64,000 nucleotides of DNA from a virus: IMG/VR virus record IMGVR_UViG_3300024999_001421; one strand, 5' to 3'. Below are positions 49,124-56,854 of this stretch, one piece after another. Within the stretch, counting starts at the first letter, position 1. Every line of letters begins with the position of its first letter. The notes under the pieces were generated by a model. That model saw only the letters and a program-made list of their open reading frames with translations. It had not been told where the DNA came from and made no database searches. Both the position numbers and the translations under genes were made by a program.

Positions 49124-49638
49124 TAGTATTCCTTTATATGGCGGCAATTTTGACCGGAAATTGGTTAAGTAGTATGTTTGTACCGGTTGAAATTGGCCCA
49201 TTTTTAATAAGTTTAGGAACCTTTACAGTAGGGTCAACCTTTATACTTAGGGATTTGGTGCAGAATAAACATGGAAGATATAAGACGTATACATTTATAT
49301 GCTCAGCACTTCTTTTGTCGCTGATACAGTCGGCAATAATGGGACAAGGTTTGCCTGTGGTTATTGCTTCCTCTCTGGCATTTGCGGTGAGCGAGACAAC
49401 CGACACTGAAATTTATACAAGACTTAAATTGCCGGTCCATTGGCGCATCTGGTGGTCAGGTTTTGCCGGAGGTATCCTTGATAGTGCTGTGTTTATCGTA
49501 CTGGGATTATCTCCGCTTGGTATGAATTTTATGCCTTGGTCGGTGGTTCCAATGGCCATAATTGGTCAATCATTGATAAAGTTAATCATGCAGGCAATAG
49601 GGGCAGGTATAATAAAAATCATGGGAGGGCATAGATGA
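49120..49638 (+). CDS. VUT/YhhQ-family queuosine-precursor transporter
   Basis: Multi-TM; GSTFILRDLVQ, ASSLAFAVSETTDTEIYTRL, LDSAVFI. Confidence 0.88.
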   Translation: MIVFLYMAAILTGNWLSSMFVPVEIGPFLISLGTFTVGSTFILRDLVQNKHGRYKTYTFICSALLLSLIQSAIMGQGLPVVIASSLAFAVSETTDTEIYTRLKLPVHWRIWWSGFAGGILDSAVFIVLGLSPLGMNFMPWSVVPMAIIGQSLIKLIMQAIGAGIIKIMGGHR

Positions 49639-50072
49639 GAAAACCTCTCGCTGACCCATTTAAGCAGGAAAAACAAATAGTCGCTAGCTATCTAGTTAAC
49701 TATTTTGAGATAAAGTTACAGTATGAGCAGGACCGGGAGAGGATACTTGAAAACTCTCCCCCGCCCGCTGACGGTATGCCTCGCGGTAGCAGTGTTGGTA
49801 ATAAAACAGCTAGTGCAGGTATCGCGTTGGCATCATTGGCGGTAACAGGAACATGGCTGCGGGTAGTTAATGAACTGGTAGCAGGTTTGAACGATGATGA
49901 TAAATTGTTGCTAAGATTGAAACGGACGTATGGGGAACATATTAAAGGAAATTCGGTTAAGGAAAGAATTGCTAGAGAATTGAGGGTGAATATAAAAACG
50001 GCGTATAACCGCTGGCAGGGTATATTGGAGAAGGGACAGGAGCTGGCGGTTAAAAGGGGATTGTTGAGGTAG
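49635..50072 (+). CDS. ArpU/RinA-like late transcription activator
   Basis: DGMPRGSSVGNKTA, WLRVV.E, C-terminal HTH; bidirectional terminator at ~50072-50100. Confidence 0.7.
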   Translation: MRKPLADPFKQEKQIVASYLVNYFEIKLQYEQDRERILENSPPPADGMPRGSSVGNKTASAGIALASLAVTGTWLRVVNELVAGLNDDDKLLLRLKRTYGEHIKGNSVKERIARELRVNIKTAYNRWQGILEKGQELAVKRGLLR

Positions 50073-51361
50073 GCAGGGGAAAGATCCCCTGCTTTTTTAT
50101 GCAAAAAAAATTTACTATTTCCTGGTAGGCGGCTTTTAACGGGTATACCTCCATAAACCGGTGAGAGTTAAGCAGTAGCGTCTGTTGATTCGGCAATCGC
50201 GTCGTCAAGCCACTGAATTTCAGCTTGACGACGCTTTTTGTCTGCCTCAACATCGGCAATATACTGTTGGATGCAGAGTAATGCTTCTTTGCGCTGTATT
50301 GGATAATAATTTCTTGCCGGGTGACTGTGGCATTGGCAGGTGCCAAGACCTAGGTCGGAACTGCTGTAACAATTGATTTCTGTAATCATCCATTCGCCGT
50401 CATGGAAATACAGGGATTTTTCGGCAATATTGTCGCCGTACTGGTTGATTCTGGTTTCCAAAACTAAATCTTGACCTGCGCGTAAATTTTCAAGCATACC
50501 TTTTAGCATTTCAATTCCTCCCTTAGTTTTTAATCTCCTACCCAACGCCTTCTTGGACGCTTGGCAGGGGATTAAACCCCTGCTAACAACTATTCGACTA
50601 TTTGCGGATGCGCCACTGATTCCCAACCGTCACCTGTCCAGCGATAAGATTCTCCCATTGTAGGGATAACCATATCGCAACCATAGACAGTTTCATGCAC
50701 AAACTTTCCGTCGTAGCGTATAATTTCTTCAAGGATAAAGTCTTTCTTGTGACTTAACTCACTGGTGTTTCCTGATGTGGAAAACCCTGTGCGCTGTAGT
50801 TTTTCCGATCCGCTTCCTGGCATTGTGTACCATTTCGCAACCGGAACCGGCATTGCATCAAATGGACCAACCCTAGATTCCGATCTTTTGCTTTTGGAAC
50901 CACTTTCAGTTGTGTATCCTTCAGCGACCGCATACCACTTTCCGCTAGTTTGAAACATATTCATCATTTTTCCTCCTTCGCCGGTTCTCCCGGCACTAAT
51001 TTTTTAACCACAATCTCGCTAATCCCCTTCCCTTCAAATGCCGCCTGTTCGCGTAGTTTTTCAGCAAGCGACTTAGGGAAGGTTATGCTGATACGTATTT
51101 TGTCTCTCGGTATGGTCATACTTCCCATTTCCCTTCGGTCACGCATAGTATTTGACCAACGGAATCGGAACAAAGGTGTAGAGAACGGTATAATTTAGCT
51201 GTTTCCTCGCGGTTTCTGCCGAGATAGCGCGATGCTTCAACTGCATCACGGAAACTTTTAACAACATTGTCGTTGCGCTGTGGGAGTGCTTGGAATTTTC
51301 TCTCCCAATTACAGGTATCGAAAACTTGCTCTAACGTCATGGTATGCGCCTCCTTTTGCTT

Positions 51362-51403
51362 AGGTGATGCACTTATTATATAGCTTAGTGCATCACCTGT
51401 CAA
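51362..51403 (-). promoter_or_regulatory. Consensus sigma-A promoter overlapped by a 12-bp perfect inverted repeat (operator)
   Basis: TTGACA-N17-TATAAT; AGGTGATGCACT-N13-AGTGCATCACCT; RHH gene 50964-51119 lies downstream. Confidence 0.8.
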
Positions 51404-54400
51404 GCAAAAAAAATATTAAAGTTTAGCCATAATTTCCGACATTGCATATTTGATATTGTTTAACTTACTTTGCTCTATATCAATCAGGTTAACGAGTGCT
51501 AATGTATCCTCGCTGGACATATTATATTTACCGGACAATTCCCAGACTAACTTTTTAATCTCTCCAAGTCTGGATTGCTTTAGTTCATCGAAGCGTTGCG
51601 GTTGTGGTTTTGGTTGATTAGGATTAATCACTGTACCACCTCCACCCACTCTGCCGCTCTAAAATGCTCTGCCGTCCACTGACAGGCATCCAACGGCGAA
51701 GTTCCCCAGACTTCCTTCCGATCCACCCCAGCAGGGATAGTAGTTTTGCCTATGCGTAAGTCGGGGAAATGGACTGACAATCGGTATTTGCTTAACCCAG
51801 GTGTATTTGTACCTGTCGGCGTTTTGCCCCGCTGTATCGGGTTGCTAGACGTGTTTATGGTCATTGTGTTGCCTCCAATGTGCTTTCCTCTAACATCTTC
51901 CTAAGTTCCCTCGCCACGTTACCCAAAGCATCCGACTTACCACGATAATAACCTTCTAGGTACTCTTGGTTATTACGTTTCATTATTTCCATTTCGGTCT
52001 TAGCATTTATAGAACTCGTGGCGTAGTTTTGGATTAAAATCTCTATGTATTCCCGCATATAACGACCTCCCTCATAGTATTGGGGTAATCCCCTCCCGAA
52101 ACCCTCCTGCTAGAGAGTTTAGGCAAGGGACGTTAGTCCCTGCAATTATCCTGTAAGATGCAAATACCAAATTGATCTACCAGACTTATATCTTTTGTTT
52201 TCCTTGGTTACAAACTTAGTAACTTTAAACCTTACATAATTACTTCCATCCCTTCTAACACTGCCCGAAATGTTATTTCCTTTCATATACTTTTTTACTG
52301 CCTCGGTTGCATTTTTAGCTATTACTACCGCATCATCATTAAATAAACCTTTGTTTCCATCATAGATTAAATATGTATTAGTCATAAATCTAACCCCCTT
52401 TTAATTTTACCAAAATCCCCTCTTGTGACACTTTGGTAAAACTGCGGCGTTAAGGTGCCGCTTGCCTCATACTTGTTGCTAATCCAGTAAACGTGTTAAT
52501 TTATTTCCCTTGAATGGCTTTAGCGTTTCACTATCGTTCCACCAATGCCATTCTCCCCCGAAAAGTTTAGGAATGAAAATTTGCTGTTCTTTGTCTAGTG
52601 TGTACCTAAGATTATCCATATCAAGTGAAAATGTTTCCATGTCCTTCTGCATCTTTTCGCCTTGAATAATTCGCGCCCTCTGGATTTTAACCCTGCCGGT
52701 TTTTGTGTGACTGATAACTACTACAAGTGATTCTTGTGTCGTGTAGTACCAGTCCTTAACCGCAAAACCGTTTATTTTTAATATTTCCTGTGCCTTCTGT
52801 AAAGCTGTTTTGCCGTCCTTGTCGGTTGTCGGTTGTGCTGCGCCTATCGGTAATAGGTTGTTAATGTCTGTGGTATTACTTCCCTTTGTGCTACCGTTGC
52901 GAGCAATCTTTAAAACTCTAACTTGAGTAAATGTAGAGTAACAATAAATATGGTCAATGCGGTAAGTGCCGTTCCACTCCTTGACCTGGCACTCCTGACC
53001 AACCTTCCAACCGTCGAACTCCTGCACATATCCAGTTTTGACCTCTTGCCGTGGTGCTGTTGCTGTGATAATCGGCATTTGAGCGTTAGAGAAATTTATT
53101 ATCTTTGTCATGGTATGACCTCCTATGTTATAATATCGGTGGACATATATTTTCCCTGCTCCCCGGTTTTACTGCTCACAACAGCTACCGGGGAGTTTGA
53201 ATTTGTATATTAACAGGCGTATTTTCCCAGTACGGTTTTAGTTGTATTTTCCTTCCAGTTTGCGCTATTTATTATCGACCAATGTTTATTATAGCCGTTA
53301 AAATGCCTCAATAAATGGAGTATTTCGCGGTTATCCTGATCTACCCATAAGGAAAAGTTAGGGTATTGCTTGCCCTCGCTTTTTTCCAAGGCGTAAAAAT
53401 AGGCTTTAATTTCCTCTGCGCGGGCGGTAAGTTCTGCGTTAAATTTGAATTCATCCCCGAAGTTATGACCCTCGCGGTCTTTAAAAACTCGATAACCGGC
53501 CAAGTCAGGAAGAATAACAACCTCGTCAAAACTGCAACCCAGAGAATTTACAATACTGAGAATTTCGGATTTGGTGTACTTAAAAGTTTTGTGTCTCATA
53601 CTGACGATGCTGTGCTTGTTACAATCGTCGTCATTATGGATATAATGGCAATGGTCAACTATCCCGGCAAAGGTAAATTGTTTAACGCTTTTGACGCTGT
53701 TTTTGGTTACTTCAAAACCAGACATTTCTAAGTAGATTGCCTCCCCTTTGTCATTGTGAAAAGCTGTTCTAATGCGGCAATTTTCAACCATTCCGCGCGG
53801 TACGCATCCGGCACCTTCAAAATATAAAGTTTTCATAATTTTAGCCTCCCTCATAGTTTTAACTAAACCCTCTCGCAAAAGGATTTAGGTAAAACTGCGA
53901 CTTTAGGTAGTCGCGGACCTGCTACCTAGTCCAATATTTCCTTTGATTTTGCCATAAACTAAATGCCTGAGATTCGGTTGGAGCAATGTTAAGTAAGGAA
54001 TTATAATTGTAGTAATTGCCCGACCTTCCTATTTTTACTTGAAGTAGGAATTTATTACCATATGAAAATACGGTGAATATATTTTTAAAACTCTTGAACT
54101 CGTTTACTATCATAATATCCCTCCTATATTTACCTCAACAAAACCCCTCTCTAAAGGAGTTTTGGCGAAGCAGGGACCGGAGTCCCTATTCCTTGCACAT
54201 CCCAGAAACTTGTCGCTTGTGTATTTGCATTTCTATAGTAGCAAGTTCCAAGTATGCTTCTACTTTTTGATCCCAATGTGCCGGGACTTGCGGATCGTTG
54301 ACAATTTCCAGAATTTCAAGCGCATCCTTCTTTTCTTGCAGTATTTCTGAATCTTGAAGCGTCTCAAGGTGCTTCCAAATAGATTCCATGAATATTACTT

Positions 54401-55027
54401 TTTCCTCAAACATAATTATCATCCTCCTTAGATTTTACGTCCAACCCCTACAGGGACCAGAGGTAAAACCTAGCGAGTGCTAGGTTAGTGCCTGCCATAT
54501 TCTATGGTTAATTCTAAAGTGTCCTTTTCGACATCTCTCCTTAATTTTGCCGTACTCCTACAGTCTTTATTTTCCTCTTTCCAATCAATACCCATTTGGC
54601 GAAAATATAATGTTACTTCGGTCAAATCACCCTTAAGCAAGTCCTTCCATGTGTAGTCAAAGAAAATTAACAAGTCTGTACAGTAGCAGTCGCATTGCTT
54701 AACCGCTTCGCGCAGTAACGCTTCTTTTATCGACTGCGTGTTTTGTTCTTCACCGTAAGAATTGCAAACCTGAAGTTCCTTAATGTTTACTTTCGGCATA
54801 ATCATCAATCTCCTTTTAGTTTAAATTCACGTCAATTCCCTTGTGGGTACTCACGCAAACCTAAACTACCATGCTTCCCCTTTTCTGCACCTCTAGCGGA
54901 TATCCCTTCGGGTCCAGTGTTCGCTTGCCTTGGCTGGCCCTTTCGGATTATGCCGACTTCGCTGGTTCGCGCTGTGGGGTTTTTGTATTCTTTTCTGCGT
55001 GTGCGGTGCGCTTTGTTGCTGTGGTTT

Positions 55028-55085
55028 CCCACTATGGCCACTTTCGGCCATTTCGACTTGTTACCGTCAAGTCTCGTCAGGTGGG
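55028..55085 (-). ncRNA. Type I hammerhead ribozyme (HH2)
   Basis: CCCAC-CUGACGA-GACUUG(ACGGUAA)CAAGUC-GAAA-UGGCC(GAAAGU)GGCCA-UA/GUGGG; full core and three perfect stems. Confidence 0.93.
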
Positions 55086-55086
55086 T

Positions 55087-55371
55087 TTATGCTGTCCTAT
55101 AGTGTTCAATCGCTCCTGTGCTAAGTTGCATTAACAGGTTTGTCATGTGACTTAACTTCCAACTTTCTACTAGACTTGAAGTTCCGAACAATCTGTCTAT
55201 TGCTACATATCTTCCGTACCAAACCATTAGTTCGATTGGGTTTTTTCTATTTTTGGTGTAGTAGTCGAAGTTTTCATTAAACTTTCTTGCCGCCAACTCC
55301 AGTTCTTCCTGTAATAATGCGTTTTCAGCTTTGTTTAGTTTTTTTATGCTGATGCTTTCGGCTGTTTTCAT
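55087..55371 (-). CDS. 94-aa hypothetical protein bracketed by two hammerheads
   Basis: AAGGAGG RBS; stop codon 1 nt from HH2 stem I. Confidence 0.8.
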   Translation of the reverse strand: MKTAESISIKKLNKAENALLQEELELAARKFNENFDYYTKNRKNPIELMVWYGRYVAIDRLFGTSSLVESWKLSHMTNLLMQLSTGAIEHYRTA

Positions 55372-55423
55372 ACTGTCTGCCTCCTTCGATATTCTGTTTT
55401 CGTGTTGTGCAGCTTACTTTCAT

Positions 55424-55474
55424 CCTGCTATGGGGTTTTATCCCCATTTCGCTGTCTACAGCTCATCAGGCAGG
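55424..55474 (-). ncRNA. Type I hammerhead ribozyme (HH1)
   Basis: CCUGC-CUGAUGA-GCUG(UAGA)CAGC-GAAA-UGGGG(AUAAAA)CCCCA-UA/GCAGG; full core and three perfect stems. Confidence 0.93.
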
Positions 55475-55790
55475 CTAGAATTTAATGCTGTGAAATACGC
55501 AGAAGTTGCAAAAGTCGATTAACTTAGTTCTGTTTAGGTTTACCGCTTTTTCTAGTCCTACCGATTTGGTGTACTGCTTGATTTTGCGCTTTAGCTGTTT
55601 GGTCATTTTGTTTCCCCCTTATTTAATTTGTAGCTAATAAGTAACCCATGTATCCGATTCCTACCAGGAGAGCGATTCCCATTCCTACCGGGTGAAACAT
55701 TGTAGTTACTGCTAATGCTGTGGCGGTGTATTTAAGAAGTTTTTTCATGTCTGCGCCTCCCGTTCGTGTGTTGCTGTGTTCCATGTGCTT

Positions 55791-55863
55791 ATACTATCAT
55801 CTGGATACCCATGCCGTAAAGCCTCAAATAACCTTATATTCAGCCATTTATGGGTATCCAGAT
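55791..55863 (-). promoter_or_regulatory. Promoter of the leftward operon with a 14-bp inverted-repeat operator
   Basis: TTTACG-N18-TAGTAT with extended TG; ATCTGGATACCCAT (55799) and ATGGGTATCCAGAT (55850). Confidence 0.6.
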
Positions 55864-55874
55864 TATCCTGCCTG

Positions 55875-56075
55875 CTAAATACTAGCTGTATCTGCCTTTT
55901 TCAGCGTTTTTTGAAGTTCCGCAAGTTCTTTTTTGATAGCATTTCTGGCTATTTCGGATGCTGGAACCCGCGTATCTGCTGATATTTCGGCTAGTTTTGC
56001 TTTATCCTCGGTTGACAGGCGCAGGTTAAAACTTTCCCAGCCATCTCTATATTTTTCTTTTCTTTTTGCCGACAT
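55875..56075 (-). CDS. Ribbon-helix-helix regulator
   Basis: ESFNLRLSTEDKAKLAEISADTRVPASEIARNAI. Confidence 0.75.
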   Translation of the reverse strand: MSAKRKEKYRDGWESFNLRLSTEDKAKLAEISADTRVPASEIARNAIKKELAELQKTLKKADTASI

Positions 56076-56335
56076 TTTGACCACCTCCAAAGACAGTATA
56101 CTACATGGGCTTCCATATGGCAACCCAGCCATTAGACGGATCTGCATTTGCCGGAAATGCTATATATAGAAGGAAAACGGAAAGTTTTGCTTGAAAATGG
56201 GCTTTGGCCGTGGTAAAATGGTAGTGTGGGGGTTTTATACCATGTTGTTTTTACCTACTGTATTGAGTAGGGATATATCGTTTTCGAGGCACCTGAGAGG
56301 GTGCTTTTTGCTTTACATAGAAGGAAGGTGAATTT

Positions 56336-56854
56336 GTGTCTGACAAAGATATTGTTTTACAGGAGTTCGCCAAAACGGTGAATCGTTTGAAATCAAAGGG
56401 CGTTGACTTGACAAATACCTATTATGGTTTCCGCGAGGATATTTCCGAAGAGCAGGATCGCGTTCTCTGGCAGCCTGAAAAGAAATTCGTAAAAGTTTTT
56501 CCTGACGAACTGGCTAATGTTGTAACGATGCTTGACGATGAAGGAAAACGCCTCAGCGGTGCAGAGCTGGCTATTGTCATGTTGCTCATGGGACATATCA
56601 GCTACAACAGCGGAATGTTGACAAAAGGCGGCGGTAACCCGGTTAGTCAATCAGACATTGAAAAGATTACCGGGTTTAATAGGATTACCGTTGTTAAGAG
56701 CATGGACAGGTTAGTTCGTAAAAAAGTTTTCGCTCGTAACAAGGTAGGCAAAAGTTATCAATACTTCGCAAATCCGTACATCTTTTTCCGGGGCCGGTTT
56801 ATAAACGCGACTCTGGTGGATATGTTTAAAACCTACAACGCTAATGATAGTTAG
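56336..56854 (+). CDS. RepL-like replication/maintenance wHTH protein
   Basis: FVKVF, SQSDIEKITGFNRITVVKSMDRL, YFANPYIFFRG. Confidence 0.7.
   Translation: MSDKDIVLQEFAKTVNRLKSKGVDLTNTYYGFREDISEEQDRVLWQPEKKFVKVFPDELANVVTMLDDEGKRLSGAELAIVMLLMGHISYNSGMLTKGGGNPVSQSDIEKITGFNRITVVKSMDRLVRKKVFARNKVGKSYQYFANPYIFFRGRFINATLVDMFKTYNANDS

Follow-up and report, generated by a model that had tools for sequence, protein, structure and literature searches.

RAGATH motifs are structured orphan RNAs that occur near self-cleaving ribozymes in phage-like DNA (2015/2017, PMC5737381). Three members are ribozymes and 33 are of unknown function, and RAGATH-18 is the guide scaffold of TnpB (PMC11061315). In prophages, clustered hammerhead ribozymes flank genes, lie after stop codons, and divide long transcripts into gene-length pieces (Perreault et al. 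2011, PMC3088659). The pistol ribozyme is reported to be prevalent in Firmicutes and in phage DNA (PMC4604425). What most self-cleaving ribozymes of bacteria and phages are for has yet to be settled (PMC6765202).

We analysed a 64,000-nt stretch of DNA from the IMG/VR virus record IMGVR_UViG_3300024999_001421, and this whole stretch is referred to as the window. The window belongs to a tailed dsDNA phage; it encodes a primase-helicase and an SbcC-like ATPase, and one of its products resembles a large terminase subunit weakly, with a score below the threshold. A non-coding stretch on its minus strand, located just downstream of a hammerhead ribozyme, contains a Y-shaped core. Like the RAGATH motifs, this core is a conserved structured RNA near self-cleaving ribozymes in phage-like DNA. 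As judged from the aligned copies, the comparison shows a new conserved family of non-coding structured RNA, which is coupled physically and evolutionarily to an upstream ribozyme of interchangeable class.

Layout of the locus and its hammerhead ribozymes

A sequence-only reading had placed about 200 nt of multibranched RNA at 54830-55032, beginning exactly at the cleavage site of a hammerhead ribozyme designated HH2. The cut holds as the 5' boundary, as the predicted 3' product starts at 55032. The region is, however, made of four parts, not of a single 200-nt fold. Its conserved part begins about 37 nt past the predicted cut, and the boundary set at 54830 cuts the junction hairpin at 54817-54868 in half. 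The 233 nt from 55032 to the ATG at 54799 contain no ORF led by a Shine-Dalgarno (SD) sequence, and none is conserved in the copies described below, in agreement with the earlier statement that the stretch lacks an RBS-led ORF. The features of the locus are as follows.

55028-55086, minus strand: HH2, type I hammerhead ribozyme (pattern search and minimum-energy fold)
55021-55032, minus strand: product hairpin at the new 5' end, 4 bp with a GAAA loop, in which the 3' strand of stem I is re-used
54996-55020, minus strand: CA-rich variable spacer from the ribozyme to the conserved element (alignment of copies)
54980-54995, minus strand: A-rich leader with five AAN triplets, directly 5' of P1 (conserved, predicted single-stranded)
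54877-54979, minus strand: Y-shaped core of 103 nt (RNAalifold consensus)
54979-54976 with 54880-54877, minus strand: P1, 4 bp, base of the core (RNAalifold)
54922-54971, minus strand: arm A, consisting of a 3-bp helix, a 2-bp helix and hairpin H1 (RNAalifold)
54957-54952 with 54938-54933, minus strand: H1 stem, 6 bp (covarying hairpin)
54939-54951, minus strand: optional mini-hairpin at the tip of H1 (alignment)
54885-54917, minus strand: arm B, an irregular hairpin with a conserved G/A-rich 3x3 internal loop (RNAalifold)
54817-54868, minus strand: gene-junction hairpin, about 16 bp plus inner stems (folding, z -5.3)
54813-54810 and 54799-54797, minus strand: strong SD and start codon of a 104-aa gene at 54485-54799 (sequence)

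HH2 contains the CUGANGA and GAAA motifs, three stems and an AUA triplet on the minus strand, and the core motif pattern matched at 55042-55080. The minimum-energy fold was the three-stem ribozyme, either with or without the downstream sequence. Because stem I is the open one, the ribozyme belongs to type I. By pattern and predicted fold, therefore, HH2 is a canonical type I hammerhead, with a predicted cut between 55033 and 55032. Its score was below the Rfam gathering threshold, the best match being RAGATH-1-hammerhead with 18.5 bits against a cut-off of 56.3. HH2 directly follows the stop codon of a 94-aa ORF (55087-55371, minus strand), the product of which has no relatives in IMG/VR. A second canonical type I hammerhead, HH1, was found at 55405-55476 on the minus strand, also right after a stop codon and with a sub-threshold Rfam match at 55408-55485, so that the 94-aa ORF is bracketed by HH1 and HH2. 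The HH1 junction has no core.

The sequence-only reading had also noticed three GCGAA repeats and a GUGG-GAAA-CCAC hairpin at the new 5' end, proposed to drive product release or to switch cleavage, and both elements are present in the sequence. The 4-bp product hairpin at 55021-55032 was found in this window's copy alone. The 3' product of HH1 can likewise form a hairpin that re-uses a strand of stem I, as indicated by folding. For both HH1 and HH2, the minimum-energy fold of the uncut RNA still favours the ribozyme over the product hairpin, which makes help in product release plausible and a switch-off of cleavage less so. The two predicted cases are both from this window, and the HH2 hammerhead has no homologs; assistance in product release is a candidate role of this hairpin.

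Conserved copies and the fold of the core

A protein search with the downstream gene led to three IMG/VR loci. The non-coding stretch was present in two of these, and in one of the two the gene after it is a different one. Copies were gathered by pattern scans of IMG/VR and JGI contigs and filtered by blastn and alignment. In total, 25 distinct copies of the leader and core were obtained from IMG/VR and JGI metagenome contigs. The structural alignment (A2) has 23 rows, namely this copy and 22 other distinct ones. Further matches of the 16-mer and gapped patterns were discarded as chance after blastn or alignment (L010, L012-L014, L016-L018, L020, L022-L024, L026, L027, L029, L030, L033, L034, L045 and L055). 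A covariance model (R1) scored 118-147 bits on all copies and found exactly one copy per contig, including one in a complete genome of 69,948 bp. The core identity among the copies is at least about 80%, and all of them stem from a small number of related sample series, so that the sampling of the family is narrow. No match to the non-coding stretch was found by blastn against GenBank phages, and an exact two-anchor pattern gave 0 matches in 185,579 species-representative bacterial genomes.

The Rfam search that had been proposed as a check matched no family to the core: the region 54877-55003 had no match in Rfam 15, even at E<=10. A homolog, L005, gave noise alone, the best match being RsmY with 12 bits against a cut-off of 57. 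A role as a CsrA sponge, considered from this RsmY match, was rejected, as the element has one invariant GGA only.

The consensus fold was well kept in the alignment. For 25 pairs in 23 sequences, 97.6% of the cells form a standard pair, while 28-43% of the cells were paired in a control in which the partners were slid by 1-3 columns. Changes on both sides were detected in 9-10 pairs, four in H1 and five in arm B. The covariation score was 0.282, compared with 0.138 for shuffled alignments, and 0 of 500 shuffles reached the observed value, which was also higher than in all of the slid controls. H1 has both-side changes in four of its six pairs and 11 distinct stem variants, and arm B, with its five such pairs, has eight distinct variants. 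Neither P1 nor the 3-bp and 2-bp helices of arm A vary in the 23-row alignment, and their pairing is predicted from the consensus fold. Since the copies are at least 80% alike and come from few samples, the covariation rests on about 8-11 variants per arm, and because the arm variants may have spread by recombination, the independent events would be fewer than the sequences.

The core of this window alone had a z score of -1.0, not better than shuffles, and its H1 stem contains one C.A mismatch. The evidence for the structure is thus comparative, not thermodynamic. Among the junction and internal-loop columns, 22 of 35 are invariant, whereas 23 of the 50 paired columns are variable. Such a pattern of conservation would be expected of a specific tertiary fold or of a binding surface. 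The A-rich leader, for which no pairing was predicted, has 9 invariant columns out of 17 in the 23 copies. The terminal loops vary, and no loop-loop covariation was visible in the alignment. An all-against-all scan of column compatibility for extra long-range pairs or pseudoknots gave noise alone. A k-turn in arm A was considered and rejected, because 7 of the 23 copies replace the would-be G.A pairs.

The pairings listed in the sequence-only reading were retained in part. CCCC/GGGG, which corresponds to P1, and GGC/GCC, at the top of H1, are kept across the 23 rows, but the others are not. CACGCA/UGCGUG, AGCG/CGCU and the CCC-GAA-GGG hairpin occur in this copy or in one variant only, and are broken in other copies. 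CCAG/CUGG fits the sequences equally well, but it belongs to an alternative fold, the stability of which is lower by about 10 kcal/mol in all copies. The CC-GAAA-GG hairpin does exist, as an insert of 2-3 bp with a GAAA loop at the H1 tip, but it is optional: it was found in 6 of the 23 copies, the others having a 5-nt loop.

The same reading had named, as the outcome that would speak against an RNA, the conservation at the codon level of a 69-aa ORF (54832-55041), and such conservation is absent. This ORF is open here, with a GTG start located inside the ribozyme and no SD. In the homologs, loop indels of 7 or 8 nt place its N- and C-terminal halves in different frames, the frame-breaking indel being the insert at the H1 tip, and in most copies each of the three frames is interrupted by stops within the element. 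These frameshifts and stops refute coding by the 69-aa ORF.

Upstream ribozymes and operon context

A putative self-cleaving RNA lies upstream of the element in all 25 copies, beginning at or just after the preceding stop codon. It is a pistol ribozyme in 8 copies, all above the Rfam cut-off, and a type II hammerhead in 14 copies with a shared core and cut-site pattern, of which six exceed the Rfam cut-off and one scores 36.1 against 37 bits. A type I hammerhead precedes one copy, that of this window, and an unclassified three-way junction without an Rfam match precedes the remaining two (L011 and L032). The pistol and the hammerheads are interchangeable front ends of the core.

The distance from the predicted cut to P1 ranges from 50 to 127 nt across the copies, and a fixed cut-to-core distance was therefore rejected. 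The spacer varies in length as well, and in most copies with a type II hammerhead the ribozyme is joined straight to the A-rich leader. A variable distance fits severing better than precise end-trimming. We infer from these alignments that selection would act on cleavage a short way upstream rather than on a precise 5' end.

To this may be added how sparsely ribozymes occur in these genomes. Searches with the Pistol and Hammerhead_II models found one or two ribozymes per record, with one directly upstream of the core each time. A single pistol and a single type II hammerhead occur in the complete genome, each less than 500 nt from the core; in two partial genomes the one ribozyme found stands directly before the core; and in a fourth record the only type II hammerhead stands before a truncated core. 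Because ribozymes are rare in these genomes, the association is specific and not a by-product of ribozyme-dense operons. Several of the phages have a second ribozyme, separated from the first by one small gene on the upstream side. In this window it is HH1, in L001 and L002 it is a pistol, and in L011 it is a type II hammerhead. The arrangement of ribozyme, small ORF, ribozyme and core is thus shared by L001, L002 and L011, where the ribozymes belong to other classes. The covarying fold, the absence of an Rfam match, the broken ORF of the homologs and this strict coupling support the earlier proposal of an undescribed structured ncRNA or leader with its 5' side set by a ribozyme.

One locus, L025 (3473-3530), carries a natural deletion that leaves only the first 25 nt of the core. 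Its type II hammerhead and A-rich leader are kept, the core remnant is fused straight to the SD and the gene, and the junction hairpin is gone. Because L025 keeps the ribozyme, leader, SD and gene without the core, the ribozyme appears to be tied to the expression of the downstream RNA.

In the two loci with an unclassified junction, the ribozyme slot right after the stop codon is filled by an RNA of about 75 nt (L011:6605-6680 and L032:10168-10243). By eye, it can be drawn with two hairpins on a closing stem and with junction strands that look conserved, although the computed minimum-energy fold differs. No Rfam match was found for this junction at E<=10, and the two pattern matches that were obtained for it were chance matches in coding DNA. 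This RNA could be a variant or a new self-cleaving ribozyme; it is represented by one distinct sequence and hence shows no covariation.

The core sits in a leftward operon of small proteins without Pfam or PHROG matches, and in the copies it lies 0.5-1.1 kb into such an operon of small orphan genes. In this window a 90-aa gene is followed by a promoter region that contains an 11-bp inverted repeat, and the core lies about 0.8 kb downstream of this region. The 90-aa gene, which has no Pfam match, was found on the same strand at 16 loci, 0.9-2.6 kb upstream of the core (mostly 0.9-1.5 kb). The first downstream genes have about 14 distinct N-termini among the copies, and the upstream genes differ too. 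Since the neighbouring genes differ, the module is independent of its immediate neighbours.

The inverted repeat is perfect (55860-55850 and 55812-55802, minus strand) and flanks a promoter-like stretch, which lies between the end of the 90-aa gene (55875-56147) and a CA-rich leader. L001 is arranged in a similar way. The repeat resembles a pair of operators for the early leftward operon. At 55598-55691 (minus strand), where small ORFs stand at the head of the operon, a weak match to the drum RNA model was obtained (19.9 bits against a cut-off of 43, E 0.56), probably by chance.

After a short linker seen in the alignment, the core is followed in every copy by a hairpin of 45-55 nt with a folding energy of -17 to -36 kcal/mol, in three sequence types with the same base, and the SD is located 0-4 nt past this hairpin in all copies. 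In this window the hairpin (54817-54868) has an energy of -24.5 kcal/mol, and the z score of -3.3 for the whole 233-nt stretch comes mainly from it. The hairpin at 54418-54492, at the next gene junction and without a core, has a similar base and the same layout of stem and then SD. The presence of a like hairpin at a junction without the core indicates that the junction hairpin is generic to the operon and is not part of the family-specific RNA. In the rest of the window, its sequence motif occurs no more often than expected by chance. Downstream of the core, long junction hairpins were observed on the minus strand at 54418-54492, 54110-54192 and 53875-53930; an SD directly follows the first two, and none was seen in the folded stretch at the third. 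The junction hairpins are possibly processing sites.

Possible functions and comparison with known systems

As the main reading, we propose that the A-rich leader and the 103-nt core act together as a cis leader on the distal operon RNA as a whole, with a probability of roughly one half. The ribozyme would cut the polycistronic early transcript during its synthesis, and the cut would sever the core from the upstream translated RNA, so that the core becomes the 5'-proximal domain of a downstream transcript with a 5'-OH end. The freed core would then fold and bind a partner, most likely a protein or the ribosome, through the invariant nucleotides of its junction and internal loop and through the single-stranded A-rich leader. 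The binding may set the fate of the distal operon RNA, either its stability against 5'-to-3' decay or its translation and ribosome loading. The target would be the whole distal RNA rather than one particular gene. The leader is favoured because the position in the operon is fixed while the next gene is not, and because the ribozyme persists where the core is deleted. On the other hand, a roadblock at the 5' end would not obviously need many invariant unpaired nucleotides, the HH1 junction does without a core, and L025 shows that the core can be lost.

Possible though doubtful is a separate small RNA that acts in trans, about 170-230 nt long, which would bind or sequester a host or phage factor. 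Its 5' end would be produced by the ribozyme and its 3' end by an RNase III-type or another endonuclease, cutting at or after the junction hairpin. The single copy per genome and the independence of flanking gene identity are explained by such an RNA as well as by the leader; the upstream ribozyme and the long downstream hairpin are both elements of a processing type, and the invariance of the unpaired nucleotides is also in its favour. The cut at the 3' side is purely hypothetical, however, the junction hairpin with its SD is generic and occurs without the core, and L025 retains the ribozyme although the core is gone.

It is rather unlikely that the core has a biochemical activity of its own that needs detachment, as a new ribozyme or sensor class or as a released riboregulator that captures a host factor. 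If true, this would explain why a rare ribozyme, of any class, is kept directly before the core.

A ligand-sensing riboswitch aptamer that controls downstream translation or stability would agree with the three-way junction, its invariant nucleotides and the variable terminal loops, and with the location in a 5' UTR, and an alternative pairing of the CUGG segment does exist. We consider it quite improbable, as the downstream genes are unrelated orphans without a metabolic theme, no expression platform covers the SD, which lies past a stable generic hairpin, and the alternative fold carries the energy cost given above in every copy.

No less improbable is a cis-acting RNA for processive antitermination or elongation control, which would modify RNA polymerase early in the long operon in the manner of HK022 put or the EAR element of Bacillus. 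The single copy, the fixed position early in a long, hairpin-rich operon and the independence of the next gene are what such an element would show. A crude scan of 49500-56800, however, found 9 terminator-like sites compared with 7.7 in shuffles, and the junction hairpins lack U tails. In addition, the scanned stretches of the window and L005 had no Rfam match, and the model does not require an upstream ribozyme.

The core might also be a new class of self-cleaving ribozyme, of the kind found next to known ribozymes, like pistol and hatchet. It adjoins hammerhead and pistol ribozymes and is compact, with many invariant unpaired nucleotides. This is very unlikely, since the core accompanies an upstream ribozyme within 127 nt and never replaces it, which would make a second cut redundant, and no Rfam ribozyme model matches it. 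An element acting at the DNA level, such as the boundary of a recombination cassette, an array of GCGAA repeats bound by a protein, or a signal for single-strand initiation, might be suggested by the mosaic flanks, by arm variants that resemble swapped cassettes and by the GCGAA repeats themselves; it is extremely unlikely, because the hairpins are preserved by compensatory changes, the orientation and adjacency to the same-strand ribozyme and SD are strict in every copy, and the middle GCGAA repeat is not conserved. Finally, the chance that the 69-aa ORF is a small protein gene is negligible, its open frame in this window being outweighed by the start inside the ribozyme and by the frame shifts and stops of the homologs.

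The locus offers a testable system, in which a single cut and a single fold of 100 nt are accompanied by natural variants and by a natural deletion, and from which the benefit of ribozyme processing in an early operon of a phage could be learned. The RNA family is uncatalogued, and its invariant junction nucleotides and covarying arms are hallmarks of a specific function in binding or catalysis. The exchange of at least three ribozyme classes before one RNA, in genomes where ribozymes are otherwise rare, ties the job of the ribozyme to a defined RNA partner.

The put RNA of HK022, the EAR RNA of Bacillus and the pRNA of phi29 are structured RNAs from phages or from within operons, about 70-170 nt in length, and their action does not depend on which gene is adjacent; put and EAR are antitermination RNAs, and the pRNA is built on a three-way junction. 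In contrast to these RNAs, the core has no Rfam match, no terminators to overcome were found in the crude scan, and the variable terminal loops show no visible covariation with each other. In T7 and SP82-type phages, RNase III processing hairpins stand between the early genes; in these, as in synthetic ribozyme insulators such as RiboJ, a cut or a hairpin uncouples the downstream message from its upstream context. The present locus is similar to these in having a ribozyme and then a hairpin ahead of an SD, but neither of them has a conserved three-way-junction RNA of 100 nt, and cleavage at the junction hairpin is putative here.

With respect to the RAGATH motifs, 23 of the 25 copies are located at most 127 nt downstream of a pistol or hammerhead ribozyme, and two follow the unclassified junction. 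RAGATH-type is a descriptive category and not a homologous family, and the core belongs to it. The core differs from these motifs in that it directly adjoins the ribozyme on the same transcript, beyond mere neighbourhood, and in that no RAGATH or other Rfam 15 model matches it at E<=10, a comparison that covers the motifs included in Rfam. Pistol (RF02679) and type II hammerhead (RF02276) are the upstream partners in 22 of the 25 copies, and the core is neither of them. As in the clustered prophage hammerheads, HH1 and HH2 bracket one gene of 94 aa. Unlike in that work, which concerned ribozymes only, a conserved structured RNA is attached to the 3' product here, and this core RNA has one of the few ribozymes of the genome to itself.
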